Shown: positions 7,680 to 61,474 of the stretch, piece by piece | Layout of the letters: every line of letters starts with the position of its first letter | Position numbering within the stretch: position 1 is the first letter of the stretch | Assembly (NCBI GenBank): GCA_001938485.1 | Contig: MQRK01226028.1 | Coordinates: 1 to 64,000, forward strand | Source: Girardia tigrina | Lineage: Eukaryota | Direction: 5' to 3' | DNA length: 64,000 nucleotides | The notes under the pieces: model-generated | Seen by the model: only the letters and a program-made list of their open reading frames with translations | The model's database searches: none | What the model was told of the DNA's origin: nothing | Translations under genes and position numbers: made by a program

Positions 7680-9035
7680 TAGGGTTGCCTCATAAGTTTT
7701 GTCGCACACATATATCTATGTTAACTGCAGATATCCTTGCATCACATAAATAATTCTTATATATTTGCAATCCCTAATAAAATGTGAATTAGATAAAATA
7801 GCATTTGCGATCTAATTTTTATTTTCTAATAATTTTTATTTTCTAATATAAATGAATTTTGTTTTAATAAAATAACAGCATTTTCATAAATTTCGAATAG
7901 TTTCATCATCCTAATGGATTTTAATCGATCTGATATTCGTAAATTAATTTACTATTGCTGGAAAAGGAATTTAACACCTTTACAAATGACTGACGAAATT
8001 AACACGGCCCTTGGAGTTGGAACAGTCTTAAAAAGAACATGTGAAAGGTGGATTTCCAATTTTCGGGAAAGCAACTTTAACACAGACAATCAAGTCCGCG
8101 AAGGGAGGCCCTCTCTTGACATAGACGAGAAGATAATCGAGCTTCCGACTGAAGACAAGCGTGCAACAACAAAGAAAATTGCAGAGGGAATAGATCAGGA
8201 TAGAACCACGGTGTGCCGGCACTTGAATGAAATGGTATACAGATACCTGGAAAATTGCCGGGTGCCACACGCTCTGACACAACAGAAAAGGATAATCGCA
8301 AAATAAATTGTTAACAGCTATTGGATAGTTATCATTGGAATGATTTCCTGTCCCAAATCATCACCTGCGATGAGATATGCGTGTACTGGGACAACGAAGG
8401 CGCTTTCAACAATAGATCATGGAGAAAATCGGATGAAAACCCACTTGCAACACCGGCACGAAGACTGACAAACCGAAAGCATCTCGCCTCAGTCTTTTGG
8501 GACAGTAAAGGACTGCTCTTGTTAGATGTCTTACTTCCAAATGCTACATTCAACGCGGATGTCTACTGTACTCAGCTGGATTGTCTCATTATCGCCGTTC
8601 AGCAGAGACGCAGACGGTCGCTCCAAGGAGGAAACCACTATGTTCAATATCTCCCCCATAATGCTCGTCCGCATACGACTGCTAAGACCAAGGACTAGCT
8701 GAATGCGCTTGGATTCACCGTAATACCACATCCACCATACTTCCCCAATCTCTCACCATCTGACAACTATCTATTCTCTCCAATAAAATGTGCACTTAGA
8801 GGAGAGAATTATGCCGGTGTCAACGATATCAACGAAGATCTTCTACATTGGTTTGACAAGAAACCGCGTGATTTTTTCCAAAATGGGATACGCAGCCTCC
8901 TTGGGCGTTGGCTGAGATGTATTGAGCACAATGGCGACTACTTTTCGGATTTGCATGACGTGGACGATTGATAAAATATTTTATATTTTTTTGTATTTTG
9001 GTGTTTTTTGCGAAAAAACTTATGAGGCAATCCTA
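7680..9035 (+). mobile_element. Full-length mariner (DD34D) with a broken transposase at ~7914-8971
   Basis: TIRs TAGGGTTGCCTCATAAGTTTTGTCGCA / TGCGAAAAAACTTATGAGGCAATCCTA with a TA TSD. Protein motifs include an HTH N-terminus, ITCDE, HNARPH and HPPYFPNLSPSD, with a frameshift and stops. Confidence 0.93.
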
Positions 9036-23374: not shown

Positions 23375-24650
23375 TTAGGTTGTGGCAAAAGGAATGAAGG
23401 TTTTTGATTTTTTTTGTATTTATCGCAATGTTATACAACTAAAGCATGTATGATGTTATGTAATGTATGATGTTATGAGTCATTCAAAAGCTTAATTTGT
23501 ACTCTTTCAGACATATATTTGTCTAAAACTTATTATAATGTTTCTTTTGTTAATAAGTTTCATTTTAATTGAGATGTCAAAACGTGATTTTTGCAACATT
23601 TACTTCTACGAGTTCAAGGTAGGGGGTAATGCAACTCAAACTACTGAAACATCAACAAAGATTGAGGCAAGGAAAGTATCAACGAATGAACGGTGCACCT
23701 GTGGTATCCAAAGTTTCGCTCTGGCAATACCAGCCTGGAAGATGAGCCTCATAACAGCCGCCCAACGACGAATGGCAACGAAAAATTGTAAGAACTGGTG
23801 GAAGCCGATCCACGCACAACTGTTCCAGTACTTGCAGAAGAGCTTAACGTTGATCCTTCAACCGTTGCTCGGCACTTGAAGCAAATTAGAAAGTCGCAAA
23901 AACTCGATAAATGGGTTCCACACGAATTGAATGATAGTCAAAAAAATTGTCGTTTTGAGGTGTCTTCTGCGGTTCTTCTGCGAAACAAAAACGACCCGTT
24001 TCTCGATCGGATTGTGAAGTGTGATGAGAAGTGAATTCTATACGATGTTCGGCATAATGGTTGAATAGCAATGAGACTCCTCACTACTTTCCGAATCCGA
24101 AGTTCCCCGAAAAGAAGGTTTTGGTGACTGTTTGGTGGTCTGCAGCCGATCTCATCCATCACAGCTTTCTGAATACGGGTGAAACGATCACCACAGAGAA
24201 GTATTGCCAACAAATTGACAAAATGCATCACGAACTCCGACGTATGTATCCGAGATTGGTCAATATAAAGGGGTCAATTTACCTCATTCACAACGCCCGG
24301 CAATACATTTCAAAACCGACCCTACAAAAGCTAAAACGAATTGGACTACGAAACTCCGCCTCATCCACCCTAACCACCGGACCTCTCGCCCACCGACTAC
24401 CATTTTTTCATGCATCTGGACAACTTCTTTCTGGAAAATGCTTTAAAAACTAAGACGATGCCTTTATCGCTTTTATTGTATCCTGAACTCAGAAATTCTA
24501 CACTAGGGGCATCGATAAACTTGTTTCTCGTTGACAAAAATGTATTGATTCTGATGGTTTTTATTTTGATTAATAAAGTTTATTCTGTGCTGAGTTACAC
24601 TTGTTTAATGTTTAGGTTCAAAAACCTGCATTGCTTTTGCAACAACCTAA
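23375..24650 (+). mobile_element. Full-length mariner, cecropia/Hsmar1-like, frameshifted
   Basis: TIRs TTAGGTTGTGGCAAAAGGAATG / CATTGCTTTTGCAACAACCTAA with a TA TSD. WVPHELNDSQKNCRFEVSSAVLLRNKNDPFLDRIVKCDEK*ILYD closely resembles Hsmar1 as recalled. Confidence 0.93.
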
Positions 24651-24654
24651 TATA

Positions 24655-25570
24655 TACCCTAATTTACAGCGAAACACCCGCACCTATATATAACCAGCAT
24701 CTAAATTTTTGATCATTAAGTTCCTTTTGAAAATTAAGTTCCTCGTATAACCCGCACGGAGTATAAACCGTAACTGGCATTATTTTTTGCAGGTACCCTG
24801 TTTAGTATAAAACGTTTTTTTTAAATGAATATCTTATTATAAAATCTTTTTATTAAAATGAAAAAATAAATTGTAAAAGTAAAAGGTTTAGCATAAAAAT
24901 AATTTACCATTGTGTTGTATATCACTGCTGATGGAGAGAAGTGCACACCAATGGTAATTTTCAAACGGAAAACAATACCGAAGGAGAATTTCCCAAGCGG
25001 CATTGTTGTGAAGGTAAATGAAAGAACAAATGTTTAGTGAGTGGCTAACCGAATTATGGGAAATGCGAAAAGGAAAAAGACCGTTTAATATAAATTCCGT
25101 TCTGATTTATGATTTAGCAAAGTTTCATTTAACAGAAAGCCTAAGAAAGTCGTTTTAAAACATACAGAAATAGTGGCCATCCAGATGGGGTTGAAAAAAA
25201 ACTACAGCCCCTGGATTTGAGCGTAAACAAGTCATATAAATCTCACATCAAGGATCATTGGGAGAACTGGATGATTAGTGGCAATCATACTTATACTAAA
25301 AGTGGCAAGATGCGTCGGCTATCTTACTCTGAAATTTACCGATAGATTCTGAATAGCTGGAACTCGATCACAGCTGAATTCCTTAAAAATGGTTTTAGAA
25401 AGTGGAACATTTGCACCTTTGAGAATGAGAGTGCTGCAGAAATGGAAGAAGATTGTAAAAGTGTCGCATGGGTAGAAGGATAAAGTAGTAATACTGGAGT
25501 GATCATCAACCTCATCTGACAAATTTATTCATGGATAAATCAGACGATGAGAATTTTGATGGATTTTAAC
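24655..25570 (+). mobile_element. POGK/Passer-like pogo remnant with internal deletions
   Basis: Plus-strand fragments RKTIPKENFPSGIVVKVNE, LQPLDLSVNKSYK, WENWMISGNHTYTKSGKMRR and ILNSWNSITAEFLKNGFRK, ending in an acidic DDENFDGF*. Confidence 0.75.
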
Positions 25571-25739
25571 TTGTTTAAATCAGAATTATATTTATTAACC
25601 AGTAAATTAAAAAATTTAATTTTTATATCCATTCTTTATGTAGACAGAACTCTACTTTACCAACAAAGTTTTAATTAAAAAAATAATTGAAAAAATCCCA
25701 ATAAAAAATTAATATGAACTACTTATAATTTATAAGGAG

Positions 25740-25850
25740 GTCTTTTTCAATTTATATTGTTTTATAACTCCGAATTTTCCGTTTTTTGATCAAATTTTCA
25801 CATAATCATTTACTGTCGTCCAGAAATGTGCAAACTTTGAAGAAAATTGT
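25740..25850 (-). repeat. Dispersed repeat related to 2905-3060 (inverted, diverged)
   Basis: The reverse complement shares AAATGATTATGT.AAAATT.GATC.AAAAA and ACGGAAAA.TCGGAGTT...AACAATAT.AATTGAAAAA with 2950-3056. Confidence 0.65.
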
Positions 25851-25899
25851 GACAAAATTTCAAGTTGAAATACGTAAAGATATCCTTGGATATACATTG

Positions 25900-28800
25900 A
25901 AAGCTCAAAGATATGGTCGCTGAATAGAGCACATTTGACTTGTGTTGAAGATTATTGTTATCAACCGGCTACTGGTGCATCTGCCGTGACTGTGTCGGTA
26001 AGATTTGTCGTCACCGCATTTGACATCAGGGGGTTATATTGACCAGTATTGTGTTTATGACATGTCGAGTTGGAATATTTGATATTCGACACTATGCACA
26101 TTTTGGTTAAATTCTTTATAGTTGTACCTAAAAGATGTGATTTGTTTTTAAGCAGGTTATCATTATCGGCGGGGCAAGATCCTAAATAGCCGACAACAAT
26201 CGATCCTAATATTACAGTCCATCCTTTATGAGCCGCTTTTGCTTCAGTTAGTAGACTTTTATATTTTTTTTGTTGTTATCTCTGGCATCTTTAAGTACTT
26301 TGATTGTGTCATAAGGGGTTTTTATATCTATAAGCCAGAGTTCTTTGGTTCCATGGTTATAAACTTGTAAACCAGCCCGGCATCCCGACACAGATCAATC
26401 ACATTCTCGATTCATGATGATTTTTAAAATTGGTTTCTCTGCAAGTTGTTGTGGTTCGTGTTGTTTGTTTTAAACATATAAACATATCTTGGAAAACTGA
26501 GTCGTTTGGCTTTGAATCCCCAGGTTATCGGTAACCAACCATAAAATACTCTCATACTAATGTAACCTCATGTATATTTTAATTCCTACTCTCTCAATAT
26601 CTATGACCACAACCATAACCATAATCCGTAAGTTCCCTGTTTGGTATATTATAGTTTCGAAAATAGAAGGTGAATCGTGAGTGTATAAAGATTCTATACG
26701 CTTCTATTTTCTACCAGGGAAGTAGTATTGATTTGGTTATTTTTTTCAAGTCCTTAATAGCAGATAGAAATATACGTTCAGGAGTGAATTTTGTCTTTCT
26801 GGTAAAATCTACTCCGAGATAACGCTAACCTCCTTCATCTGTGACTATAGGTATTTGTATGTTATTAATATGGATTGATTTATACATAAGAGGAGTTGAT
26901 AAATATCCACACTTGGCTGGGTTGAACTTCATATGTCACATGCAGATGGAACCATGGCTTGTAAACAAGAGTTGCTGGTTGCAACTAGTGCAATACCATC
27001 TGCATATGCCAGACAAGTAATCTTACCAGCCTCAGTGTCAATACCAAAAATATCATTATCTTGTAGTGCAGCCAAAATTCGATCAATGCCAACGCTGAAC
27101 AACAGCATTGAAAGCTGACATCCTTGTCTAACCCCCTCCTGATTGATATGCCTTGAGTCGTACAATCATTGCAGGTATATGTTGATGAACAATCCGAGTA
27201 CAGATAGAGAGAGCAGGAGAATGAATCTAGACCTTTTCTTCTGAGAACTTCTAATAAATGATTAATTGGAATGCTGCCAAACGCATCAGTTAGATCGAGG
27301 AATGCAATCTGAAGATGTTCATATTCCTCCAGTAAAATTCTCATGACGTTATTGTGTTCAGCGCACCCGTCCGATGGTCCGATGCCTTTTTGAAACTTTG
27401 AAATTAAATTGTTCTTCACCAGTCATTGTTCCAGTTGAGTGCATAGGCAAGATGTGAACAACTTGGCAATGCATTCCATCAGGGCTATTGGTCTCCATGA
27501 TCCAATATCTTTGTAATTTCCTGACTTACCTAGTTTATGGATCATTACCGTTAGGAATTTCTTCCAACTGGGTGGAATGACACCCGTATTAATGATTTTG
27601 TTAAATAATGTGACCAGAAATTGACAACCTGGGTCGCAATAGTCAATATCTGCATAGTCAATGTTTGATATACCGGAACTAGTATTTTTGGTGTGTTTTT
27701 TATATGTTGGCAATCTCTTCTGGAGTGACATGCTGAAATTGAAATTTTTGGCCAGGTTTGATGTTTGGTGCATTGCTCCAGTCCTTTTCAGGAGGATAGT
27801 CGCTTTTTGATTTGGTGTAATTTGTAAGAGATTCCAAAGATAGCTCTCCATCAACAGTAGTGTCACTTAGAATTATTTCCATGACCTTTTTCGGTTTTAT
27901 TTTAAAGTAATGTCGTAGATTTACATCCGTTTTTTCTAATGTTCCTGATGTTTCTTGATGCATTGAGATTTTTGACCGCTTTAACTCTTGCTTGCAAAAT
28001 GTAGTTGGTAATGAGAGAGTCCAATTCTTCTGCACTTTTTATGGAGTTAGCCACTATTATCTCTGAGATTTTTTGTAACGCAATTCTCTGTTATTCTTTT
28101 CTTTAATAGTTTTTTCTTGTCTTCTAATTTTCTTTTGAAATTTCTTTTTAGTGATGTTGTAAATTATTTCTCGTACATCAATGTTGAGGGGGTGTTGTGA
28201 TACAATTGCCATATAGAGTTGGCAATACAGTATTGTTGGGGTTCCCTAAACTAATAATTAATAATAGAAAAAACTTTTAAAATAAATAAATATTTATAAA
28301 TAAAAGTTAAGATGATTAAGTTGCTTCTCGGTCGTTCATGGTTTGAGCATTTTGTTCAGGGACGGTGGACGATCGTCTAGCAACTTTATAATGACATCAC
28401 TATTATAATTATTTAAATTATTAGGATTTAAATTATTATTAATATCAATAATATTGCTGTAATAATATCATATTTAAAATCATTTGTTCAATTATTATTA
28501 TTATTAGTGTAATTGCTATTATAATTATAATTTTATCACTGTCATAATTATTTTTATTATATTATTCTTGGAATTAATATTATTATTATTTTCTTTTTTG
28601 GCGAGTTTTTCCTTCCTCCACATGGACCCATTCATTATGAGGGTACTCCTGCTTTGGGCGGAGAAGTTCGCCAGAGGTTTATTTTAAATATATATATATA
28701 TATATATATATATNNNNNNNNNNNNNNNNNNNNNNNNNNNNNNNNNNNNNNNNNNNNNNNNNNNNATATATATATTTATTATTATCATTATTATATTTTT

Positions 28801-30450
28801 TAAAGCAATATTATTTATGATTATAATTATTATTATTGTTATAAAATGTTATATTATTATTATTAGTATTGAAATATTAAACTTACTTTTTTTTGAATTT
28901 TTGTAAAAATGAAAATTTTCCTCCTGGGCGATCAACGTATCTTTTCATCGCCCAAGGGAATTAACAAATTTGATTGGCAATTTGGAGAATTTGTCATTTG
29001 GTTTTCTTTCGCGACTGCGGGGGGTCGGAGTTGTTAATCCAAATTTGAAAAGCAATTATAGCAATTTTAAAAGCAATTATAATATAAAGAATAATAAGTT
29101 AAACAATTTTTTTAAAACTTTTAACATCTCATATTTTTTATATATAAACAAAATCGGGTATAAATACCCTTTAAAAAATTCAAAAATAAATAATAAAACC
29201 AAGCAATAATTCAAATACAAAAATATACCAAAACAAAGTTGTGCAATTATTCAACCTCAATCATTATTTAAAGATCTATGTGCAATATTTTGAAGAGTGT
29301 ACTCTGTGATTATGAAATACAATTTTTATAATATTTGTTACTTATCTCAATTGCAATAAAGTTAACAGTATCAATTATTGAGCTGGGTTCGAGCTACGAA
29401 CAAGCAATGCAGCCTTCAAATTAAGTTGATTCAATTCACGACAATATATTTTCTTTGAACAGAATTATTCAAACGACAATTCAATTATCGATACCCAGGA
29501 TTAAACCTACTAAATCACCAACAGTATCCACTCTCATTGGCAAATCATTGGATTGTTTCAAGATCCAACCTTCGCCACCTAATCGAAAGAAGGAGAGAAG
29601 ATTATCATTGATGCTGTTGATTGCCAGTTCTGGTTCCAGAGTAAGGGATTCCATGACATTATAAACGATGGTAGTTTTGTTGTTAATATCAAAAACTACT
29701 AGAATCAATTGCAAGTCTGATATACATAACGGGCAAAAAACTTTATCTATATTTATAAATATTTTATATGATATATTACTTTTTATATATGATTCATTAT
29801 TCTTGGCAATTTGATAAGTGACTTGTGTATATAACGTAAGCCACTTATCGTTAGGCGGTAATATATCAGTAAGATTCGACATTTGGAAATATTCAAATCG
29901 TCGGAGGTTCATAGTTGTTTCCCTTTTGGTATTATATACATTAATTTTCTGTTGACTTATTTTTTTAGAATAAACTTTTGTTCTAGATATCTCAGTGACT
30001 GAAATGTCCCCACCCCCAGTTCTTCCCGCAGGACGATCCGATACATGAGGGCGCCGCTGATGACAGCGTTTCGGATGTTTTCTATGTTTATTTCAAAGAG
30101 GGGGTTGATTGTTTCATTTATTATGTTTTCTATAAAGCCGCAGACAAAATGAACAGTCATTATTGTTCGTCTGCTGCTCACATTCGGGGAACTTCAGTGG
30201 GATCCGCACTCTATAGGGTTTATTTTTTCTATCTGGGACGACTTCGTTTATGGCAGTAATGAGTGGCGCCACTAGAGCTGTGACTGTCTTTTCACACGGT
30301 AAGTTACTCAGTGAGTTGTAGATATACGCGTGTTCCGGCGTGCAGCACAGTGTAAACCAATGTGTGTTGTTGTAATTGATTGGAACTATACATGAATCTC
30401 TTTTTTTGTGTTAAAGCTAGTAAAGACCGAATTTAACCTAACGACGACAG
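25900..30450 (-). mobile_element. NeSL-like RLE non-LTR retrotransposon A (Ulp1 - Ulp1-like - RT - RLE), decayed, with a ~1-kb AT-rich interruption at ~28240-29200
   Basis: RT motifs SWRPIAL, FLDLTDAFGSI, GVRQGCQLS and LAYADG (26929-28035). RLE motifs WLIDIKTPYD and GSIVVGYLGS (~26150-26400). Ulp1 motifs VPINYNNTHW, YNSL and QQTNNNDC (~30150-30400). Joining the upstream and RT parts into one element is inferred from strand and domain order. Confidence 0.78.
28687..28775. repeat. (TA)n microsatellite spanning an assembly gap
   Basis: TA runs flank the N stretch at 28714-28765 on both sides. Confidence 0.9.
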
Positions 30451-31556
30451 TTACTTGACTCTGCAGTTTCTATTATTGTTAAGAATAGATAATATTAAGA
30501 TTAATGTTGTATTAATAGATAATGTTAAGAATAGATTAATAAAGCATATTTATGTACAGCCAATACTTATTACATCTCTAATATATTAAAAAATATTATG
30601 ACGGATTTTAAATTTCAAATATTAAACATAAAGGTTTATACTTCATCTTTATTGATGGTATAAATATAGTTTTATAATAAAAAATATCATTTATAATCTG
30701 AAAAATTGTGAAAAATCGTTTTGTTGTTTTAAATTCATGAAAGCTTTTTTCACTTCGTTACAACAGAATATTGAAAAATTTTCATTTATAAACGAAAAAA
30801 GAAGAATAAATGAAGAAGTGTCGGTTTATGAAATTTTAAAAATATAATTATTAAGAACATTTAAACAAGTCTCGGAAGCACGAATGGTGGAGGAGATCTG
30901 GTAGTCGTCATTGGAAAGCCTGATTGTGACGCAAGTGAAGGGGAATTTGTAAGAGCGAATTAATGTTCAGCTGTTGCGAACTCTAATTTGCTATTACAAA
31001 ACAAATAGATTAAATGAATAAAAAGACCGAATACACAGAACGCTTGATTATAAAACACAAGAATANNNNNNNNNNNNNNNNNNNNNNNNNNNNNNNNNNN
31101 NNNNNNNNNNNNNNNNNNNNNNNNNNNNNNNNNNNNNNNNNNNNNNNNNNNNNNNNNNNNNNNNNNNNNNNNNNNNNNNNNNNNNNNNNNNNNNNNNNNN
31201 NNNNNNNNNNNNNNNNNNNNNNNNNNNNNNNNNNNNNNNNNNNNNNNNNNNNNNNNNNNNNNNNNNNNNNNNNNNNNNNNNNNNNNNNNNNNNNNNNNNN
31301 NNNNNNNNNNNNNNNNNNNNNNNNNNNNNNNNNNNNNNNNNNNNNNNNNNNNNNNNNNNNNNNNNNNNNNNNNNNNNNNNNNCAATAAATCTGAAACGGT
31401 ATCTGCTTCTTCTTAATTATTTTTATTTTCTATTAACTTTTTAAATTTCCGATCAATATCTTTTTTTATTGATTTTTTTTATTTTTACATATATCGTCTT
31501 GTATCTTCTAATTTTATGAAACAATGTGAAAGATTGATCGAAATCCTTAAAAAAAC

Positions 31557-32082
31557 TCATTTCCATGAATTTCTTTTACATGTTTTTTTCAACAAATTTG
31601 GTATTTTCTCGCTAATGATTCGTAATATGTTTAGCGCTGCATTGCTTTCTACTATTTCTTTATCTTCATGTCGTTTATATTGCTGTATTATTATATCAAG
31701 AATGAACGACTTTGACTGATTTTCTNNNNNNNNNNNNNNNNNNNNNNNNNNNNNNNNNNNNNNNNNNNNNNNNNNNNNNNNNNNNNNNNNNNNNNNNNNN
31801 NNNNNNNNNNNNNNNNNNNNNNNNNNNNNNNNNNNNNNNNNNNNNNNNNNNNNNNNNNNNNNNNNNNNNNNNNNNNNNNNNNTCGATATGATTTTGGTCT
31901 TCCATATTTTCTCTTTTTGAATAATGGGCCGGCAAAATCGAGACACTTCTCCAAATACTTTCCGCAAGCACAAAATACATAGAATATACACACATCAGAA
32001 ACAAACAAAAATTAGTAGGGCTGTGACTGTAGTGATTTGGACGTGGTTTTGCTTGTGTTCTTGTACAAAGTCTTGGTTTCAT
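31557..32082 (-). CDS. Candidate ~156-aa ORF of unknown function spanning a gap
   Basis: Filling the N gap (31726-31882) with the 102-nt equivalent from the adjacent duplicate (32198-32299) joins MKPRLC...NHI to ...ENQSK...NSWK* in frame. It has a short hydrophobic segment near the N-terminus and no recognised domain. Confidence 0.35.
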
Positions 32083-32148
32083 TAGCTGTTTTTTTATTTT
32101 TTGTACATAAATTTTCTGGCGTGAGATGAATGTGATATATTATTATAC

Positions 32149-32439
32149 ATATTGCTGTATTATTATATCAAGAATGAACGACTTTGACTGATTTTCTAAT
32201 CGGACGATTTCCGGGTTTTCACTTAAACCAAGAAATGTTTCAGCCTTACTGACTATGAATTCTTTTGATCGAATGAACTTAATTATGGATTCAAAACTTT
32301 CGATATGATTTTGGTCTTCCATATTTTCTCTTTTTGAATAATGGGCCGGCAAAATCGAGACACTTCTCCAAATACTTTCCGCAAGTACAAAATACATAGA
32401 ATATACACACATCAGAAACAAACAAAAATTAGTAGGGCT
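32149..32439 (+). repeat. ~290-bp direct duplication of 31677-32022
   Basis: The sequence matches both sides of the gap at 31726-31882, with one visible C/T difference. Confidence 0.85.
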
Positions 32440-35200
32440 CTACAGAATTCATCACCAAAGCAGATTGTGATACCAAGATTCTTCAGTGCAAAAATTGCAT
32501 GTTGAATCTTGTTCCACCAATTTTTGCAGATATATGGACAGAACCCTTCATTGATCCAGTTAAAGATGTCTAACCTAAACTGTTTATGGGATACAAATTT
32601 CAGTGTAGTCCATACAGCATCCTTTACATAACTGTCGGAAGAATTAAGGAGATAAAAGCTGTGGGTCACCGACTGTACCATGTATTCGTCAAAAACAGAA
32701 GTAAGACCAACCCCTCCATGCTGTTTATCAGTATTCATATAGGAATTAGAGGCTCGTAGAGGGAGATTCAAGAATTCCTTATGTTCTTTCCGAACAATAA
32801 TTTTTCAACCCGTCTTCCAGGCAGTAATATCAGGGAAGGGAATGTAAGTGTTACGGAAATAAAACACCATCTTCGAATGGACAAAAGTATGATATGCATG
32901 GAGCTTGTGCAAGGGGGAGAGAGCAGAGTTCTTAAGGAGGACTAGATCAGCAAGAACATCTGCAATGACTTGATCAGGAGTATGAGGAAGTAGGCGGGAT
33001 ATGAAACATCCTAGGTACACGTAACCTTCATCAGCTTTGTGGTGTGGAACAATTTTACACTCAAGGACGAGCATGGCATCCTTGTCATAAGGAAAGTCCA
33101 TGTAGGCACATTTTGAAATTCTGAATTGCATCCCAACAGCTCGGACATATTTAGATGCACAACTAACAAGATTATTAATCGCATAACTCGATGCACCAAA
33201 GAGTACCAAGTCATCGGCATAAGCTATATAAGAAACAGTGGAGTCACCAATCTTGATCTGGGTGAGACATCGAATAGAGTCCAACTTATTAAGGATCGGT
33301 TTAATGCCAACATTAAATAGGAGCATAGACAGTGGACAGCCCTGTCTGACTCCAACAGTGACAGAAAGACGATCAGTCGCTTCACCTTCACAGATAATTC
33401 TGGTGTGACAATCCCTATACAATTCCCTAATAAGTCATATCGAAGGAGGACGTAAGCCCATCTTCTCAAGGACAAAAAGAATGTAATCAATGGAGATGGT
33501 GTCAATGGCGGCGGCAATATCCATGAAGGCGATGTTGAGTTCAGACTTGTCTTCATTTGCATAGTGATCGATAATAGCGCGCAAGAGAAAGGTGTTTTCA
33601 GCACAGCCGTCCGGTGGACCAAGACTCTTCTGAAGAGGGTGAAGGAGTTGGTTAATTTTCACCCAACCTTTCAACTGCCAGCAGAGAAGCGTGGTTAATA
33701 ACTTGTAAAGACATTCCTGAAGAGTAATGCCTCTCCAAGAAGATGGTAGATGATATTCGCCTTCTTTTCCTGACTTGGGAATCATTAACGTGTCAAAGGT
33801 CTTCCAGTCAGAAGGGAAAGTGTTGGATTCAAATATCTGCTTAAAGATCTTTTCACAGATGACCCCTTCAGGATCACAGTACAGGATATCTTGATAGGAA
33901 ATTCCACTTTGACCGGAGGATGACTTGTCTTTTTGCATAAGACAGGCAACAATCTCGGCACTGGTAGTGGGTCGAAAGCTGAAGGCAGGACCGGAATTAA
34001 TGGGACAATCAAACTGGTCAGGAAAGAACGTAAAGGGGCGGTTGTGTTGCTTAACAAAAACAGTAAAGTCTGCAGGAGTAGGTTTGGCAGACGCATTCAC
34101 CCGGGGTCTAATGATGGCCATGGCAGCTTTAGGATTAGTAATGTAGGTTTTCTGAATTTTCTCGTGATTAAGTCGGTTTGGGCTAACTTCCGAACAACCC
34201 AGATAGGGAGAGGGAGGTTTTGCAGGCTGAATGCTATAAATGTGACCAGAAAAAGCAGAATAAAGCTGGTTAAGTTCATCATTATCATGATCTTTAACAA
34301 AGTTAAGGGCAAGAACAATGCGGACAGCCACACACCGAGAAGTGGTAGATGGATGGGCAGAAATTTTGTCTTTGCCTTTCGTCCGAAGAACAAACTTCAT
34401 TGCAAAAGTTCAAATGGCTTTCAGATTGATCCTATTGTTGAAAGAAATACCAGAGAAGTTCCTCATATAACCACAGATAAGAGAGCCACTATCAACGTAT
34501 TTCCTGGAGGTGACAATGTTGTGGGGAATCAAAATATTGAAGATCAACCAAGCAATAGCTTCTACAAAAATTGCAGAGTATTTTAATAGTATTTTCATAG
34601 ATGGAATATTCCTGTAAACCAATAGGATCCCAGACTGAAATAGAAGACGACGGAAAATCACAGGTGACAACAATCCAACGGCATTGTCGGAAGAATAACG
34701 GGAAGGCTACTTTCTTTTTATTGGCAACGTCGCGGAGACTGAGATGTTCCAAAATAAAGTCTCTATTATTCGCTACAATAGCTTTCGATAGATCAGCAGG
34801 AAAGACAAAGAAATCCTTGCAGTTAATAGAGGCTTCAGCAAAGGCATCAACGTGGCAATGAGAAAAGGAAAGGAACGGGAGAAGAGTATTAGACACAGGA
34901 CCATCTCCAACATCATCAGAGAAGGTGCAGTTTCCCAGCGAATGAACTATCTTTCTGATGTGAGAGGAGTTAATGTTCAAATTGGATCCAGGATAACTTA
35001 TCCAAAGTGCATATGCACAAATCATCGGTCCACAGTCGTAATCATTGGTTTGGCCTGGGCATTGGCCATAAAAGTAATACTCGAACACCAGTTAATTACA
35101 GTTGATTGGGGTAAAGAATTAACCGACCAAAATTATATAGTTGTCCCCTTTTATACTGAGGCAATATTGTGCAATATGTCCTGGAGTCAGGTCATGTAAT
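32440..35200 (-). mobile_element. NeSL-like non-LTR retrotransposon B (Ulp1 - Ulp1-like - RT), truncated at both ends
   Basis: RT motifs SWRGITL, FMDIAAAIDTI, GVRQGCPLS, IAYADDLV and GGVGL. Upstream it has the Ulp1 motif PGQTNDYDCG. No CCHC/RLE 3' end is present. Confidence 0.85.
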
Positions 35201-36613: not shown

Positions 36614-37942
36614 TTAGGTGTACAAGTATGAAATGCGGATTTCAGAAAACGGATTGTGCACAATGCAAAAAGTAGGTCAATGGTTAGGCAATGATGTCAT
36701 AATATTGAGTAATTATGTAGTGTCTCATACGTAACTCATAAATTGATAAAGCGTTTTAATAATTGTTGTATTTCTGTGTTTTATATGTTCAAATTTATGC
36801 CAAGCAAGGAGCATTGGCGGACGGTACTAATTTTTTGTTACCATCTAAAGAAAACTGCTGCTGAATCATACCGATTCCTCCAAGAAGCTTATGGTGAATA
36901 TGTCCCATCGCAAGATACATGTGAACGATGGTTTCGGCACTTCCATGGTGGTGACTTTGATGTTGCAGATAAGGACCATGGGAAACCACAAAAAGGTTTC
37001 GATGATGTGGAATTGCAAGCTTTGTTGGACGAAGATGATTCGCAAACACAAAACCAACTGGTAGAGCAATTAAGTGTTACTCAACAAGCTGTAAGCAATC
37101 GCCTCAGGCAGATGGGAAAGATTCATAAGATCGGCCGATGGGTACCATATCAATTGAACGATAGGCAGATGGAGAGTCGCAAAACCACTTGTGAAATCTT
37201 GCTTGCACGATANNNNNNNNNNNNNNNNNNNNNNNNNNNNNNNNNNNNNNNNNNNNNNNNNNNNNNNNNNNNNNNNNNNNNNNNNNNNNNNNNNNNNNNN
37301 NNNNNNNNNNNNNNNNNNNNNNNNNNNNNNNNNNNNNNNNNNNNNNNNNNNNNNNNNNNNNNNNNNNNNNNNNNNNNNNNNNNNNNNNNNNNNNNNNNNN
37401 NNNNNNNNNNNNNNNNNNNNNNNNNNNNNNNNNNNNNNNNNNNNNNNNNNNNNNNNNNNNNNNNNNNNNNNNNNNNNNNNNNNNNNNNNNNNNNNNNNNN
37501 NNNNNNNNNNNNNNNNNNNNNNNNNNNNNNNNNNNNNNNNNNNNNNNNNNNNNNNNNNNNNNNNNNNNNNNNNNNNNNNNNNNNNNNNNNNNNNNNNNNN
37601 NNNNNNNNNNNNNNNNNNNNNNNNNNNNNNNNNNNNNNNNNNNNNNNNNNNNNNNNNNNNNNNNNNNNNNNNNNNNNNNNNNNNNNNNNNNNNNNNNNNN
37701 NNNNNNNNNNNNNNNNNNNNNNNNNNNNNNNNNNNNNNNNNNNNNNNNNNNNNNNNNNNNNNNNNNNNNNNNNNNNNNNNNNNNNNNNNNNNNNNNNNNN
37801 NNNNNNNNNNNNNNNNNNNNNNNNNNNACAAATGTATCATTAGTAATGGAGCATATTTTGAATAAAGCTTTTTTTATCGTTCTTTTGTTTTTAACATATT
37901 TCTTTTCAAAATTTAATCCGCATTTCATACTTGTACACCTAA
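36614..37942 (+). mobile_element. Mos1-like (mauritiana subfamily) mariner; transposase 36785-37865, centre in a gap
   Basis: Perfect 28-bp TIRs TTAGGTGTACAAGTATGAAATGCGGATT with a TA TSD. The N-terminus RTVLIFCYHLKKTAAES...TCERWF...ELQALLDEDD...QQAVSNRLR is Mos1-like, and the C-terminus is KCIISNGAYFE*. Confidence 0.95.
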
Positions 37943-48873: not shown

Positions 48874-51800
48874 TGTGGTGTGATTTTATATGGATTTATT
48901 AAATTATTAATAAATCAGTTTGTTTAAATTAATAGTTTGTGTAATGTCAGTTTATTTTAAAATATATTTTTATTCAGGTCTTCGTCAAGCTATCGCGGCT
49001 GATGAATAGAATAAAATTCACGGGTGCAGTCCGGTTATTCGATGAATCCGGAAATTTCGCAGAATGGTATCGCATTATTTGAGGCGACGGCAACCGTTTA
49101 CGACATTGAAAAGGTGGTTGCTCTGCCAATGCTGCTCGAGGGTTGAGCGTATGAATTGTTTTCCGGGCTACCGAGCGGAAAGCAGGGGTGCTACGAGGAG
49201 GTAAAGGATGCGCTGCTGAGCGCCTGCGGTCTTGACCTAAGGGAGGCGTATGCAGAATTCCGTTCGAAATATCTACGACCAGGTGAAGCAGTGGAATAAT
49301 TCGCATCTGATCTGCGGCGGCTCGCGACAACGGTTTGTCACGGACAACAGTCCCAGGATTTTTTTCTGAGACAGGCCTTTATGTGATGTCTACCGGACGA
49401 GATTGCAAAGTATATATCGGCAGAAGCGGTGAGGAAAGAATTTCCGCTTGAGGAACTAATATCGATGGCACACACGCTGCTCTGCATCAGCAAAGCGGGG
49501 ATAAGTGACGCGATGGCAATGGCATCATCGTAGGCTGTCGATGATAGCGGAGCAGGAAACAGTGGAAAGGCAAATATGACGGTGGCAGTAATAAAATACA
49601 AGAATGGCGGAAATCGAGCGCATCACTCGAACTACAACTGGTGGGGCCACGGGCAACGGATTCGAAAGGAGGACGAAGAATGGGATCAATCCACCATCAA
49701 GGGTAAGCAAAGGCATTGCTTCATCTGTGATTCAACAGACCACCTTTGTGCTGAATGCCCACGCTGCCAGCAGCGTCCGGGAAAAGATTAGCAGGGCCTC
49801 ACTGTTGCGCAGGTGGGGTGTCTGTGGGTTTTGTCGCGCATCTGCCAACAATCGAAGTCAGAGTCGAGGGGCGGGCCGTAAGAGCAATGGTGTATACCGG
49901 GTGCTCAGTGTCTATGATCGCCCAGGGGTTGGTTCCGGAGAATCACGCGGAGCGAGTATCGGAGAAGCTCCAAACAGTGCTCGGTCCGACGGTGATTAAG
50001 TTCGGTGCCTGACTGAACATCAGCGTATCCGGGTACCAGTTGCGATGTTGGGTCATGCTCGCTCAAAACCTGAGTGGAATAGCAAGGAAGATTTGGGGAC
50101 TCAAGAAGGTCTCTGAACAGCAGATCGAAGCGGTAATAAAGAATTGTGAGCCATGTGCTTCAATCGATCCGTCGCCATTGCCTTGGAGGGAGGGTGAACT
50201 GGCAGTGAAGAGAACGTGGCTACAACTTCCTAAACCACCTTTACACCAACCAAATTTGCAACTTGTGCCGTAAATGTGGAAAATACTTGGATACACCCAT
50301 ATACATCATCAACGGATGCGACTACTCCCTCCTATTCGGTACCATGAAACACGACAAAATCAAATACGACCTAGCCAAATTCCTCGGTAAAAAGTTCGGC
50401 CACAATACCGTAAGTGTCGAACACAGACACACAATGCCAAACGGAAAACTATTCATCTTCGACATTCTCGTCGACTTTGGTCGCACAGCCTGGATCATCA
50501 AGGTCAAAAGCCCCTGGGGCGCAGAGGACACCTTCAATCACGCATTTGACAGAGCCTGTGAAAAATACCTCGACGCCCAACTAGATCTCATCCAATCCCA
50601 TGGAAAATCCGAAGTCTCAATCTTCCCTTTCGTCGTTGGTAGCCTCGGCCGATGGTAACCCACCAACAACTTCCTCCTCGCCGCCATTGGATGGAATAAC
50701 GACGATATCGCAGCATACACCACCAGAACAGCTAGGCGAAATATCGAATTATATGCGAAACATTATAACCAACACCTCTTATTCATCTCCAACGAAGAAA
50801 TCCTGAGAGATGACACTGCCTAACATCAAGCAGGCACCAGCACCTAGTTGACTCTCCCTTGCAGAGCTCAACTCTTTTCCGTCAGTGCGACAAAGGTAGA
50901 CTTTCAAATCGCTGAATTATGGAGCCTTTTCAAACTTTGTCGAAAACGTGCTTGCATTTAGTTTAAATCTCACCTAAGACGTGTGTTTAAATTAAATTAA
51001 ATTAAACCGAAAAAATTGCTCACAATGGTCGATTGCGGCCCAAGGCGGTTTGCAATATTGTGCCAAATTGCATCAGAGAGCGAACCGGACTTATATGCAG
51101 CCATGAGCAGCGTGAGAAACAAGTTTGGTCCACCAGGAGAAGGTCTGTTGGATAATTATATCTCCTTCAGGAGATCGNGGGGCGGACCTCCTTGCTTAAG
51201 TCGGAATCGAGGCTCGATTTTGATGCGTAAACCGTAAATGGCATTGTGGACCGCAACCAACCAACGCGACCCCAAATGCAAATGGAGTAATTCCGGCGTC
51301 GACGGTTTTTGCGTAAAAGAGAAGATTACCATTGCTAAAACTTTCAATCAAGCACAACCTGGATCGCAGCATAATCCCCCACTAACGAAGCTGGCGGTCG
51401 GGGACACGGTGTTCGTAAAACCGGCGCCACCAGTCAGCTGCATGTCGCGGTGGAAGTGCGGAACGGTGTACAGGGACGCAATTTGTACATCAAGTAGAGG
51501 TAGACGGGAGGCCGTATCACGTCAGCCACGTGTGGCATTAACCGTCGGGATCAGCTCGGTTTCGTTCAGATGACGAAGTGAAGGAAAACGTTGAGATACG
51601 ATCGGCGCATCGCGATACTGTTCGGGTTGATGAATCAGAACCTGTACATGAATCTGGGCCAACCTGGGAGCCCGCTGAGGAGCGTCCTAGCAGAGCGATT
51701 CGCAGATTTGAAGACTTCGTATGTGCGGGTACAACAGCATGCGAAGGTGACAAAATTCCCCTTTGATCAAGAGGAGTATGTTTATGTGCCTTAAGGGAAC

Positions 51801-55099: not shown

Positions 55100-57600
55100 T
55101 ATCATAATAGTTATTTTAATAAAATTGGTAGAATATTCACCCACTTTGTAAGTTGCTTGCGTTCCTGTTTCAACCGTCTTGTTCTTCTATTTTATATTTT
55201 GTCTTAAGTTCTCTGGGTCGTTTAAATGTCCCTGTACCATGTTTGTATGTCTATTTTCCTCCCAAATACTGCTTCTGCTGGGCTACACCCTATCATTTTC
55301 TGTTTTCTAGCGTTTATCGCAAATTATACCTCTGGTAATATGTCTGCCCAACTCATGGAGTTTCTCTCTTTAAGACTTTCTTGGATGAACTCCCGAATAG
55401 TTCAGAATTACCTCTCAATTATCTCATTGGTATTATGGTGATACGAACTTGAAAAGATCAGTTTAATGCCCCTTGCCTCCAACATTTCTTTAACTCTTTT
55501 CGATTCAAAACTTTTTCCACAATCGAAATACATCTCTTTTGGTGCACCGAATTTTAGTATCCACTTTTGTAATATGGTTTGTATAATCGTTTCTTCATCC
55601 TGTCTTTTAATAGCTGTCAAGCTTACATATTTGCTGAAATGGTCTATAATTCAGAAAATGTACTTCTCTCTTCTTATTGTTTCGTTCCACGGTCCACAAA
55701 TGTCTATTTTTATCTTTTCGAATATTTCTGCAGCTGTTATATTTAGACTTTCTTCCTTTGATTTTGTAGTTCTTGTCTTCGTTTGTTGACATTCTACGCA
55801 TGACTCCACTACCTCTTTTACTGTTTTCTTTCTTCTTCCATATCGAATTTGTCTCTCAAGTATTCATAAACCTTTTCGGTCCGTGCGTGACATAATAATC
55901 TGTGTGTTTGAATAATTATGTCATTCCGTTTTTCTTTAGGTATCCATTCTTTCTGTCCTGCTCTTGCTTCGCTTCTCGTAGTTACTGCTAATAGCCTAGT
56001 TTTGTTTTTACCATTTTTCGCTTCTTCATGTTCCATTTGGCACTGAGTATACGTTTCGCAATTTCGTCTAGATAACATATCCGCGTTGCCATGTAATTCC
56101 CGTTTTCTGTATTCTATTTCGATATCAAGACTGCTTAAATAGTTCATCCATGTTTGGAACTGAGCAGTTAACGGTTTTTTTATTTGAAACATGAAAGTAA
56201 TCGTTTTATGGTCTGTTCATAATTTAAACTTCTTTCCATACAAATAGTGATTGAAATGCTGACAGAAATAAAAAATCGCTAAAAGTTCCTTCCTGGTTAG
56301 GTAGTACCCTCTTTCATGCGCGGACATTGTGTGTGATCCATATGCTACAGCTTGTTCTCTACCTGAATCGTTTATCTGTGATAACACTGCCCCTATGTTG
56401 TCGAAGCTGGCATCCGTGTCTAAGATAAACTGTTTATTAAAGTCCGGGAAGCTCAATATTGGTGCCGATATTAATGTTCTTTTCATATCTTGAAATGCTA
56501 TTTCGCACGCGTCTGTCCATTCCAGTTTTTCTTTGTTTGACCCACACATTCCTTCTAATACTTTAGCTTTCTTCGCATATCCGTTAATAAATCTCCTGTA
56601 ATAATTGCAGATTCCCAAAAAACTCCTCAAATTCTTAATGCACTTCGGTCTTTGAAAATTTTCAATCGCAGCGATTTTTTCTGGATCTGTCTGTATTCTA
56701 TTGTGATTAATTATATGTCCTGAAAATTTCACCTCTTGTCTTAATATCTTGCATTTTGATGGTTTTATCCTCAATCCTGTTTTCATAATTCTTTCGAAAA
56801 CATCTTTGACCACATTGTAGTGCTCCTCTTTTGTCCTTGTTGCAATTAATATGTCATCTAAGTAAACTGACGCTCCCTTTTTTACCGGTTTCAAAACATT
56901 AATCATTAATTCCTGAAACGTTCCTGGTGCTGCTGATATGCCGAAAGGCATACGTCTGAAGCAAAATTGCCCTGATTTCGTTTAAAATGCCGTCTTTTCT
57001 TGCGACTCCTTGCCTAATTCTACTTGGTAGTACGCATTTCATAAGTCTATTGTACTGAAATATTTGGCTCTTTGTAACCTATTCATCATCTCTGTTATGT
57101 TCGGCATGGGGAATGCTTGTCTCTTTGTAATAAGGTTTAATTCTCTAAAGTCTAGGCATAGTCTGATTTCATCCTTGTCCTTTTTCCAGACACTTACTAT
57201 CGGTGTGTTCCATTGTGAGTTACATGGTCTTATTATTACATTTGCTCCTAGGTTCTTAATTGCTTCTTTTAATTTACCCTCTAAATGCACCGGCTGTCTT
57301 CTTGGTTTTATATTGATTCTTCCCCCCGTTGTTTCTATTGTATGACATAATAAATTCGTGCACCCGATACCCCAGTCGTTTTCCATAAATATGCATCGAT
57401 ATTGGTGGATTAATTTTTTTATTGATTTATCGTTCTGAGTTTCTATCGGTTTTAATGCCTCTTTACCTCGATTTTCATCCGTAATCTTTTCCCCAAATTT
57501 CGCCTCGATTTCGCATATATTGGTTTTACTATTTTCTTGATTTTGTTCTTTCCATTGTAGTTCTATCCCGAACTCCCAACACTTCATATACTATTGTTGG
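55100..57600 (-). mobile_element. Ty3/gypsy pol fragment (RT-RNase H-integrase), pseudogenised
   Basis: RLCLDFRELN, MPFGISAAPGTFQ, VYLDDILI, LDTDAS, KELLAI, HRLLCH and KFGAPKEMYFDCG...YHHNTNEIIER, with several stops and frameshifts. No LTRs found. Confidence 0.93.
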
Positions 57601-58749: not shown

Positions 58750-60344
58750 TTGAACGGTCTCTCTGGAGAAGTGATGATGAAACACGAAGATGGAAGTTTC
58801 CTTGAGATCAACAGATTAGCCTATGCGGACGACCTCTACCTCATCGATACGGACTGGAACAACCTGATAAATAATTTGAACATTTTAAGGGCATCCTTTT
58901 TAGATTTAGCTCTCAAAGCTAACATCGATAAAACCAAAATTTTGAACTTAAACGGAGATACTCGGAGCCTCACTGTTGGGTACCAACTTGAGGCCGGTAT
59001 TGAGTGAGTCTCTAGCTTTTGTTACCTAGGATACACGATCTTTTCAGCAGAAAGCGTTGACGCGAAAGTGAAGAAAAGAATGAAGAAAGGAACCCAGAAG
59101 ATCAGGGACTTGAAACAAATGTTAAAGAGCTCCAAACTGACTATGAGGAATAAGAAGAAAATTATCAACGCATACATAATCTCCGTAGTCTACTACGGCT
59201 GTAAAAGCTGGAGAACTGCGAACAGGAACATTGAGAAGTTGCATGCTCTTTATAACCTATGCACGCACATAGTTAGGAAGAAACACAAGATTGAAAAGAT
59301 CCATGTGGATATCCTGGACATTGGACTCCCAAATCCTATGAATATTTTGCGAGTAAAAGGCTTACTTTCCACAGTAAGACGGAAACTTCAGAGAAGTACG
59401 AGACAATCAAACGAATCTGGAAGAGAGAAATACAGATGGGGAAAAAGATCAGTGGGAGAAAGAAGCAATCAATCTCTGAATGTCTTCTAGTGAACATACA
59501 GTAGCGATTTGGGGATGATGCGGTGTATAGATTTCATTAATCGCATCATTCATAGAGACCCTACTGTATTGAAGGAAACATACATAAACTTCTTAATTCG
59601 ATTAGGAAGACTCAATAGGACAAGAACAACTGTGCCGAAGCTAATGACCGAGGGAGAAAAACGTCCCCAATGTCCAGTAGAAAGATGCTACAAGGAGTTT
59701 TCCGTAAAGAAAGGACTGAACAGACACACCAAAAGGGACCATGCGATGTCAGCTTCCGCTAATCTAGATCATTCCAACTAAACACAACAACAGTAAATAG
59801 CATTTCCATGTACACTGTGTAAAAATTCATACAAAACGAAGGGATTTCTGACAAGGCACTTCTGCTGGAATCATAAATTGGAGGATGCCGAAGAAATTGG
59901 AGTACCGCCAATGACACCAGGGCAAACCAGTTCAACGAATAACACGGAAGAAAGAGTCTCAGAAAACCTCAACATTCCAGGCAACCAGTTTCAATCAGTG
60001 ATAGACCCCCCGGCTATCTCGACTGCAATGGAGGAAGTTATAGGTACTGAAGAAACACATCTGACGTTTAGGATTGCAGATCTAACTGAAAGGGGAGAGT
60101 TCAGATGTCCCTTTCACGGCTGTACGAAGTCCACGAATACAGCCAAAAGTATTCAGAAACAAGGATATGCAACCCATGGATGTTCGTTTCTTACAGAGAA
60201 GCCGAAAAGATCTCGGAGACCGAAACTGTCCGACCCCGTAGGAGGCCTATCGGGGTGCTGCTAGTGATTCTTTAGTTTGGATGGACCCTCTAAAGAGCCT
60301 AGAGGTTCAATACCACTTGAAAGTAATGGGAGACCCACATTATT
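58750..60344 (+). mobile_element. 3' half of an APE-type (RTE-like) LINE: RT C-terminal part, C2H2 fingers and 3'UTR
   Basis: LAYADDL, NIDKTK, FCYLG and YGCKSW; fingers CPVERC...HTKRDH, CTLC...HFCWNH and CPFHGC; short ATTATTA tail at ~60338-60344. Confidence 0.8.
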
Positions 60345-61474
60345 AGAGATTATTCTTTTCTCTGCGCTCTTCCAACTGTTATCCATCTCAGTGCACTCTT
60401 TCGTCAGTTCAGCTGTAATTGATTCTTTCTTTTCCATTAAAAGTAATTTGTCCAGTTTTTTCTGCCTCCGAGGTTTCCTTCTCTTAGATCTTTTCTTTTT
60501 CTGAGACAATGACTTTAACACTACCAAGTCATTGTCTGATCCGTAGTCAAGACCTGGGTAGCTCTTGACATCGATTATTCTACTGCAACTTTTCTGGTCC
60601 GTGAGGAAGAAATCTAGTAGCTCTCTGCGCTTAGTTGCTGGATGTTCCCAGCTAGTTCTTTGAGACATTTTAGGCTTGTAAAATGTGTTCTTAATCCATA
60701 AACCTCTGGAGGCAGCAAGTTCCATTAGAAGCTCACTACTCTCTGAAGTGTGGTGAGCTGACGCGTAAATTCCAACAATATTTCTGCATTCATCATTTTT
60801 CCGAATTCTACAGTTGAAGTCACCTCCAATAATGAATTGGTACTTTTTCGTTTCAGCGATCTTTTTCATCTTTATCGTTAACTCGTTGAGTTTCTCATAG
60901 AAGCTTCGTCTCTCTTCTATTGTGTATCCAGACTCTGTTGGAGCGTAAACTCCAATCAATATTAGTTCCCTGCTCGGTATAATACAGGTAAAAATTCTTT
61001 CGTCAGCGCATTCAAATTAAATGTCATCACAATCAGTCTTCTTTATTATCAGAGCCGTACGACATTCTCTTCTCTCACCCACATTTCTGCCAGTGTATAG
61101 TAATTTCCTTGAACCATGTTCGTGTGTTTCTTGATTCCAGAAATGTGTCTCAGGGAGGATATACATGTCTATGTGAATCATTTCTGATATTTCAACAAGA
61201 TTCAATAGTTTATCATCGTTCAACCCCCGAACGTTCCAGTTACCAACTCTCAATCTGACGGCGGAGTTCTTCTCGAGTGACTCACATCTCGAGAGCATAA
61301 TGACTTCGGGTCCTTCCAGACCCCTGATTTGAGTTTTTGTAGCGATCGTGTTAAGGATTAGGTTGGGTTGCTGGCCCAACCGTCCTTGTCTCTCAGTTTA
61401 GCCTAGGGACGGAAATTCACCCAGCCTAGTTTATCAGGACTGCTCCACGGGGAGGCAAGAGACATTACAATCCC
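60345..61474 (-). mobile_element. 5' half of an APE-type (RTE-like) LINE: 5'UTR and AP endonuclease
   Basis: VGNWNVRGL, LPETH, GVYAPT, IGGDFN, LLDFF and SDN(H)-type APE motifs. Confidence 0.88.
61387..61474 (-). ncRNA. HDV-like self-cleaving ribozyme at the LINE 5' end
   Basis: Minus strand: P1 GGGATTGT/GCAGTCCT (terminal G.U), P2 TGTCTCTT/GAGAGACA, P3 CC/GG closing L3 TCCCCGT, P4 CTAGG/CCTAG, and J4/2 GCTAA containing the candidate catalytic C. Confidence 0.72.

Follow-up and report, generated by a model that had tools for sequence, protein, structure and literature searches.

A conserved, catalytically dead Ulp1-like domain beside the reverse transcriptase of NeSL-like retrotransposons in Girardia tigrina

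Why should a retrotransposon carry two copies of a protease domain when one of them has lost its catalytic residues? The question is raised by a 64,000-nucleotide stretch of the Girardia tigrina genome (assembly GCA_001938485.1, contig MQRK01226028.1, positions 1 to 64,000), referred to here as the window. Its minus strand holds two broken retrotransposon copies of a type without long terminal repeats (non-LTR), A and B, which are decayed copies of two multi-copy families and are each 5'-truncated inside a Ulp1-like protease domain (D1). A linker, a second Ulp1-like domain (D2) and a reverse transcriptase (RT) follow. An original prediction, made from the letters of the window, held that a tandem of protease and conserved dead copy is an architecture of the whole lineage, and the copy counts, substitution rates and domain tree presented below bear this out. 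By architecture (RT, zinc finger, restriction-like endonuclease and upstream Ulp1-like protease) the elements would be classed as NeSL-like; the RT tree holds no named NeSL, R5 or Utopia element.

Both families are abundant, with at least 150 genome matches each to the A D2 and B blocks (the best 150 of 1,378 candidates). Copy counts draw on the readable sites of 25 family A and 46 family B loci, nine duplicate loci having been dropped. The continuity of D1 and D2 with RT, which the decayed window copies could only suggest, is seen in intact frames: one family B copy (L015) has an 800-amino-acid frame from D1 through D2 into RT, and in family A one copy (L050) is open for 561 amino acids from D2 to the YADD motif while another (L039) joins D1 and D2. 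A 2,599-codon 'open frame' amongst the family B matches was rejected as mostly assembly gap. Intact copies match RVT_1, with the Ulp1-like protease upstream of RT. The endonuclease motif RH[DN] is present in all five open reading frames (ORFs) and D...D-x-K-x-P in four of the five. A zinc finger after RT, CxxC...H...C, was recognized by eye (zf-RVT E 0.011–0.022); a scripted pattern matched none. The family B stretch is covered by contigs from two RNA libraries and two presumed-RNA runs, which are not counted as evidence of expression since DNA carry-over is possible.

By its sequence, D1 is a Ulp1-like domain with intact catalytic motifs. PF02902 matches it at 39.9–46.9 bits in three intact copies, above the curated cut-off, and at E 9.1e-5 and 22.8 bits (cut-off 20.7) in window copy A. 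The catalytic order is that of clan CE, with His, Gln and Cys in 22 of 22 rows, Asp in 19 and Asn in three (family A and two sisters). Amongst individual copies, His is kept in 15/16 (family A) and 38/39 (family B) and Cys in 17/18 and 47/48. Of the residues equivalent to contacts with the small ubiquitin-like modifier (SUMO), the first Trp, which we take to be W448, is found in 10 of 15 readable rows and the Asp in 10 of 16; family A D1 has both (WFD), and family B D1 has Ser and Gly there. In Ulp1 the SUMO-contact Asp is D451 (PMC3216068).

D2 has the clan CE fold, as judged from profile searches and predicted models. The Pfam profile Peptidase_C48 matches 14 of 16 D2 sequences at E <= 1 (best 1.6e-9), and a D2 profile searched against the PDB ranks SENP3, SENP1, Ulp1 and SENP2 first (best E 3.1e-5). 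The family B D1 and D2 profiles also align with one another (probability 91). In the predicted two-domain model of family B (mean predicted local distance difference test, pLDDT, 75.9; linker below 50 and disordered), D2 superimposes on yeast Ulp1 with VIA Z 18.4 and a root-mean-square deviation of 3.1 over 173 residues; the family A D2 model (pLDDT 87.7) matches Ulp1 with a Foldseek template-modelling (TM) score of 0.74, E 2.3e-6. The two second blocks had been said to align by eye. Taken alone, the window blocks are not significantly alike (best BLASTP E 0.05); the family profiles align at E 7.9e-4, probability 25. Homology of the A and B D2 domains is accepted because of the family-level tests, namely the Peptidase_C48 matches and the predicted folds.

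The catalytic residues of D2 are lost in a consistent manner. At the His position, family A has Gln in 24/24 copies and family B has Arg in 45/46, with one His; at the Cys position, family A has Ser in 22/24 (one Lys, one gap, no Cys) and family B in 44/44. Because the same substitutions recur in nearly all copies of both families, the loss is inherited and not due to decay after insertion. In 22 D2 rows (some of them close pairs), His is kept in five, Cys in one, both in none and the oxyanion Gln in none; Ser occupies the nucleophile position in 17, the first Trp is lost in 22/22, and the D451-equivalent Asp is kept in 11, in neither window family. As no row keeps His together with Cys, D2 is best described as a pseudo-enzyme of the C48 fold and not an active member. 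The original prediction had named three outcomes that would count against it, namely D2 without a C48 fold, His and Cys retained in the family consensus, and proteases not contiguous with RT in other copies; all three were examined and none holds. Two single records, in which decay or truncation is possible, are of a different kind: P0051 has a single domain with His, Asp and Gln but Ser for Cys, and P0047 (P0047/P0073) starts with a D2-like domain keeping His and Cys.

The plan is widespread in the genome. A PF02902 search (best 150 of 1,586 candidates, with 30 loci and 40 further stretches examined) yielded 14 clusters, in 13 of which D2 follows D1. The exception, L128, ends after D1: its 528-amino-acid frame (1363–2946, plus strand) ends in a D1-type domain that has intact motifs and groups with the retrotransposon D1s, there is no Gly-Gly, D2 or RT in the next 1.1 kb, and it may be a non-autonomous or domesticated derivative. 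Altogether, the D1–D2 plan is common to about 15 families in the genome and to database proteins. Of the database relatives, two have a third domain (D3), one live and two dead C48-like domains preceding RT (P0024 and P0049), and five have a single domain; a word-based search with the D2 alignment returned three proteins, which is weak evidence on range. In a domain tree, a single branch unites 27 of 28 D2 rows with both D3 rows (Shimodaira–Hasegawa-like approximate likelihood ratio test 97), with the A and B D2 domains inside it and the truncated P0047 outside, in what is a quick tree without bootstrap or inferred root. In the RT tree, the two- and three-domain elements form one branch (94) beside the single-domain ones. 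The simplest reading of the trees is that D2 most likely arose once, by one duplication before families A and B split.

D2 is under purifying selection and is conserved about as strongly as RT. Ratios of non-synonymous to synonymous substitution (dN/dS) were estimated for eight family B subfamilies (44 of the 46 loci, 28 pairs), giving medians of 0.071 for D2 (18/28 pairs estimable), 0.074 for RT (21) and 0.14 for D1 (25); these ratios are rough because dS is near saturation and 10 of 28 D2 pairs could not be estimated. dN was lower in D2 than in D1 in 28/28 subfamily pairs. Compared with their own majority sequence, copies gave 0.67–0.69 in one homogeneous subfamily and 0.13–0.17 in two mixed ones. 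Conservation is distributed differently in the two domains: amongst 11 families the catalytic segments are better kept in D1, and the segment joining strands one and two has 28.6% identity in D2 against 14.6% in D1, where it varies in length and sequence. This stretch is VR-2, which in the clan contacts the ubiquitin-like substrate (PMC4961225). VR-2 of five single-protease relatives is mixed, one of the five being clearly D2-like.

If D1 is active, what does it cut? A candidate lies in the linker immediately downstream. In a segment 38–55 residues after the D1 Cys, 19 of 24 elements have Gly-Gly and five, family B amongst them, have Gly-X-Gly, the glycines being located 42–51 residues after the Cys. 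Either motif occurs in 3.7% of other 18-residue windows, in 0/20 elements at the same place after D2 and in 0/4 single-domain relatives with Cys; a fifth such relative, with Ser, has Gly-X-Gly in a wider window. Enzymes of the clan cut after Gly-Gly in SUMO precursors and viral polyproteins (PMC1198262, PMC4584293). In readable family A copies the first Gly is kept in 17/18 and the second in 15/19. P0067, found after the linker survey, has LKGG 45 residues after the Cys and a D2 that is strongly degenerate (score 34, as against 17.5 for the best of 30 shuffles). The adenovirus protease also accepts Gly-X/Gly. A proposed tie between loss of the first Trp in D1 and the Gly-X-Gly form was rejected as not clean: P0049 combines Trp with GHG, and L107, P0030 and P0003 lack Trp yet have GG.

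A reason for such a cut is suggested by the junction between ORF1 and ORF2, which share one frame across a UGA. Amongst 86 loci with the first helix of D1, the nearest stop upstream lies within 40 codons in 76; the remaining 10 are L128, frameshifted loci, or loci that run into a contig edge or gap. The stop is TGA in 74 of the 76 and TGA-C in 70, followed by CTA in 33, CGG in 22 and CAA in seven (62 in all) and by other C-triplets in eight; 55 of the 76 therefore read UGA and then CUA or CGG. In the same loci, TGA-C is found at 18 of 253 other frame-ending stops (7%). Junctions were also counted by group because some loci are identical copies, and here TGA-C was found in 14 of 15 and TGA-AGG in one (two frameshifted singletons set aside). 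The junction is readable in four family A loci (CGG twice, CTG and TGG) and 22 family B loci. Upstream of the stop, five loci have a frame that is open for 561–790 codons, as far as the edge of the locus, and in 36 of the 76 no Met occurs before the end of the D1 first helix. The records of P0067, P0050 and P0054 each show one long protein.

In alphaviruses and several plant viruses, UGA-CUA or UGA-CGG with a 3' stem-loop constitutes a Type II readthrough signal (PMC3159437, PMC4132726), and a comparable structure is indicated here. The 120 bases 3' of the stop reach z <= -2 relative to shuffles in 9 of 15 families, as against three, two and none of 15 at other offsets. In an 11-pair stem that begins eight bases downstream of the stop, 10 of the 11 pairs show changes on both sides (11 sequences, from related families), a covariation that was reached by none of 500 shuffles and by no slid version; in family B the stem is weaker, with 3/11 pairs changed on both sides. 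Insertion of selenocysteine at the UGA was set aside, as the flanking residues are not conserved; no search for a selenocysteine insertion sequence (SECIS) was made. Regarding ORF1, no zinc-finger family was found in the four ORF1 parts searched. Two ORF1s (L095:4589–6367, minus strand; L127:1–2370, plus strand) contain a cold-shock-domain-like stretch, a candidate RNA-binding part, with Pfam matches under the cut-off (E 1.2e-4 and 2.3e-4); it was not seen in two other ORF1s.

These observations can be combined in one scheme. Most ribosomes would stop after ORF1, and a fraction would read through the UGA to make ORF1p–D1–linker–D2–RT–endonuclease; D1 would then cut the linker, freeing D2–RT–endonuclease from ORF1p–D1, and D2 would stay on RT as a non-catalytic binding module. 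Duplication would thereby have split the ancestral jobs, catalysis going to the copy that is cut away and the non-catalytic job to the copy beside RT. One long protein made by readthrough is likely because D1–linker–D2–RT sits behind an in-frame stop of leaky type, and the codon context and hairpin give this step good confidence. Self-cleavage at the linker appears probable from the position of the glycines. Binding is the most likely occupation of D2, because it is held as tightly as RT and its VR-2 is fixed, and such a role is suggested with a shade less assurance than the cut; that the ligand is a ubiquitin-like protein is a tentative idea, well short of even. A structure prediction for D2 with the RT region, run without alignments, scored 0.00 and gives no evidence either way. 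Released D1 may act on SUMO or ubiquitin as well. The scheme as a whole is judged slightly better than an even chance. The original prediction had offered two possible roles for the dead copy, counteracting SUMO-dependent silencing and polyprotein processing, and the latter now seems the better supported, given the Gly-Gly linker and the in-frame leaky-type UGA.

Several points weigh against this scheme, besides the quick tree and the rough rate ratios noted above. The junction lies outside the window and is known from other copies; one family has UGA-AGG, and in the main group of family B a Met 13 codons after the stop makes re-initiation possible. Six of 15 families have a weak hairpin or none, and the covariation set was picked from related families with a visible hairpin, the structure being derived from the same sequences. 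The linker window was likewise picked after the motif had been seen, in families that are related; the Gly-X-Gly form occurs in family B and four other rows, and the linkers have no P4 residue in common. Glycine linkers can be mere hinges. The conserved residues of D2 may reflect core packing instead of binding, and the degenerate D2 of P0067 implies that the D2 pocket can be dispensed with in some cases.

A self-processing protease combined with readthrough is the pattern known from retroviral Gag-Pol. A fuller analogy, in which the leaky stop sets the ratio of ORF1p to RT, a captured SUMO-protease fold processes the polyprotein at Gly-Gly, as in ubiquitin-like proteins, and D2 is a natural reader of SUMO or ubiquitin, is unlikely on present evidence; if true, the dead twin would steer the RT–endonuclease to marked chromatin or shield it. 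Host-directed counter-defence, in which D1 strips SUMO or ubiquitin from host silencing factors, with D2 as a natural substrate trap on SUMO-marked chromatin or proteins, is doubtful. The Ser at the Cys position in 17/22 D2 rows recalls the engineered Ulp1 C580S trap, which has the same Cys-to-Ser change at the nucleophile of the same fold (PMC3216068), VR-2 shows twofold higher conservation in D2 than in D1, and in flies SUMO represses ribosomal DNA (rDNA) with R1/R2 inserts (PMC7676866). However, His, Gln, the first Trp and D451 are all still present in the trap, and D2 has lost most of them: the Trp is missing from every row, and the Asp that the trap requires is kept in only half of them. 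The variable VR-2 of D1 is unlike that of an enzyme tuned to one conserved folded substrate, the linker motif is left unexplained, and R1/R2 expression rose when Ulp1 was knocked down in a fly screen, where a simple anti-silencing role would predict the reverse (PMC7676866). Protein maturation and removal of ubiquitin are combined in the adenovirus protease (PMC4584293), and counter-defence can therefore coexist with self-processing.

A little more doubtful still is a reading without any cut, with the glycines as a flexible hinge, D2 as a structural or RNA-binding scaffold for RT, and the attached D1 acting on other substrates. It would accommodate the varying middle residue of the motif (GDG, GNG, GYG, GHG, GCG), a D2 as conserved as RT, and the absence of glycines from D2–D3 linkers and single-domain relatives. 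Yet a hinge requires no fixed Gly 42–51 residues after the D1 Cys, the glycines follow only the live domain (0/20 after D2, none between D2 and D3), and P0067 has kept them where D2 has degenerated. A different enzymatic activity of D2 that relies on its conserved Ser is highly improbable: Ser-Gly, Trp and Asp/Asn are kept, and five rows have His, but seven different residues replace His, in five rows Thr, Asn, Cys or Lys stands in place of Ser, and none of the 22 retains the oxyanion Gln. The broken state of both window copies and the E value of 0.05 between their blocks would suit post-insertion decay or chance likeness, a reading whose probability is close to nil as it is refuted by the shared substitutions in nearly all copies, a dN/dS near 0.07 and the clear fold match.

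The presence of Ulp1-like proteases in non-LTR retrotransposons has been known for some 25 years, and R5 has two ORFs. Nematode NeSL elements were reportedly described by Malik and Eickbush in 2000, and R5/LIN by Burke et al. in 2003. To our knowledge, non-LTR elements are generally thought to have no need for proteolytic maturation. The preferred reading, of readthrough followed by self-cleavage, would give this lineage a candidate substrate for its Ulp1-like protease, its own Gly-Gly linker, and in the readthrough fusion a reason for the cut. The Gly-X-Gly families and the single- and triple-domain relatives provide a built-in control, and D2 would be a clan CE pseudo-enzyme shaped by natural selection and matching RT in conservation.

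The closest described systems are NeSL and Utopia-1_TSP (PMC4640811), non-LTR elements with RT, a C-terminal zinc finger, a restriction-like endonuclease and an upstream Ulp1-like cysteine protease. The elements described there show one protease domain in a single protein; those of the present lineage carry two or three, together with a glycine linker and an in-frame UGA between two ORFs. The general Utopia plan is one ORF with N-terminal zinc fingers (PMC4640811), unlike the two in-frame ORFs split by UGA found here; that plan is not a strict criterion of the NeSL clade. Flatworm R5/LIN elements, which belong to the clade (PMC4640811), are alike in their restriction-like endonuclease, by description alone. 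The clan CE viral proteases African swine fever virus (ASFV) pS273R, adenovirus protease and vaccinia I7L share the fold and catalytic order and cut polyproteins after Gly-Gly-Xaa or Ala-Gly-Xaa (PMC1198262, PMC4584293), but are free-standing, act on virion precursors, and have neither a dead twin nor an RT. Readthrough of an ORF1 stop has already been suggested for Paramecium non-LTR Group 3 elements, which differ in having an apurinic/apyrimidinic (AP) endonuclease, with no protease described (PMC5405496). The linker motif, the in-frame UGA context and the covarying hairpin go beyond the original prediction. A literature search, with Repbase and the founding NeSL/R5 papers outside it and not aimed at readthrough in non-LTR elements, found no doubled or dead Ulp1 domain in a retrotransposon and no functional test of Ulp1-like proteases in non-LTR retrotransposons.

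The window copies themselves are set out in Table 1. Element A comprises a partial D1, linker, D2, RT, zinc finger, restriction-like endonuclease and 3' untranslated region (UTR). The motifs first quoted for the two copies, THW (30357–30365), YNSL (30309–30323), QQTNNNDC (30153–30179) and PGQTNDYDCG (35029–35058), are all present on the minus strand as claimed. The second block of A, given as 29481–29912, is D2 from 29537 to 29912; the remainder, 29481–29536, belongs to a foreign insert and not to the domain. This insert replaced about 25 nt of A D2, including the Ser codon at the Cys-equivalent position, so the claimed loss of Cys in A, although true of the family through its other copies (AESG), could not have been seen in the window. 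Parts of it are found again in L148, within an insert of a family B copy (70–81%), which makes it a repeated element that landed in both families. The D1 His and Asp of B are absent from the window because B is 5'-truncated inside D1. In B D2 the frameshift sits just before VDSG, and the 'HLQ' previously read there is out of frame, intact copies having PPNIVTSRKYVDSG.

Table 1. Positions of the retrotransposon features of elements A and B within the window
Feature	Position	Strand	Remarks
Element A, decayed family A copy	25710..30436	-	blastn to family copies, 80-96%; 3' end approximate
A D1 (Ulp1/C48-like)	30030..30436	-	N-terminal helix missing; frameshift after Cys
A D1 catalytic sites	His 30360-30362; Asn in YNS 30309-30323; Gln...Cys 30153-30179	-	
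A linker RTGGG, candidate self-cleavage site	30009..30023	-	
A D2, first part, Gln at His position	29537..29912	-	intact-copy fold model
Foreign 1,303-bp AT-rich insert with assembly gap, inside A D2	28234..29536	.	family copies collinear both sides
A D2, last part (IANSIWQL...)	28150..28233	-	
A spacer and reverse transcriptase	26619..28149	-	broken by stops and frameshifts
A restriction-like endonuclease remnant	25961..26446	-	IDIKTP 26314-26331
Element B, decayed family B copy	32445..35063	-	truncated inside D1 and before endonuclease
B D1 C-terminal remnant	34945..35063	-	PGQTNDYDCG 35029-35058
B linker VGDGP	34897..34911	-	Gly-X-Gly form, without Gly-Gly
B D2	34386..34890	-	one frameshift, one stop; intact-copy fold model
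B D2 key sites	Arg at His position, QCRW 34675-34686; Ser at Cys position, VDSG 34485-34496	-	
B reverse transcriptase	32700..33900	-	YADD 33210-33221; one in-frame stop

A search for host SUMO with PF11976 (2,210 candidates in the genome) gave ubiquitin-like matches and no SUMO in the loci read, seven of eight of which were translated. Amongst these loci are mobile elements that have captured ubiquitin: L151, L152 and L155 (G000 C185812, C222326 and C215667); L154 and L156; and L157. In some, an Hsp90-like fragment and a ubiquitin ending in LRLNGG are fused in frame to a BEL/Pao-type Gag-like region, labelled by eye; others have a fusion to a coiled-coil protein or tandem ubiquitin-like repeats.

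On the 3' side of element B, positions 31400–32450 are a partly duplicated stretch with gaps, possibly an assembly artefact. Other mobile-element remnants recognized by eye in the window include mariner-like transposases (7890–8306, 23496–24712 and 36713–37212), a restriction-like endonuclease piece of a third element (50209–50658), a Ty3/gypsy-like pol (55818–57590), a long interspersed nuclear element (LINE) of the AP-endonuclease type (59008–61016) and a gag-like frame (63022–63891).

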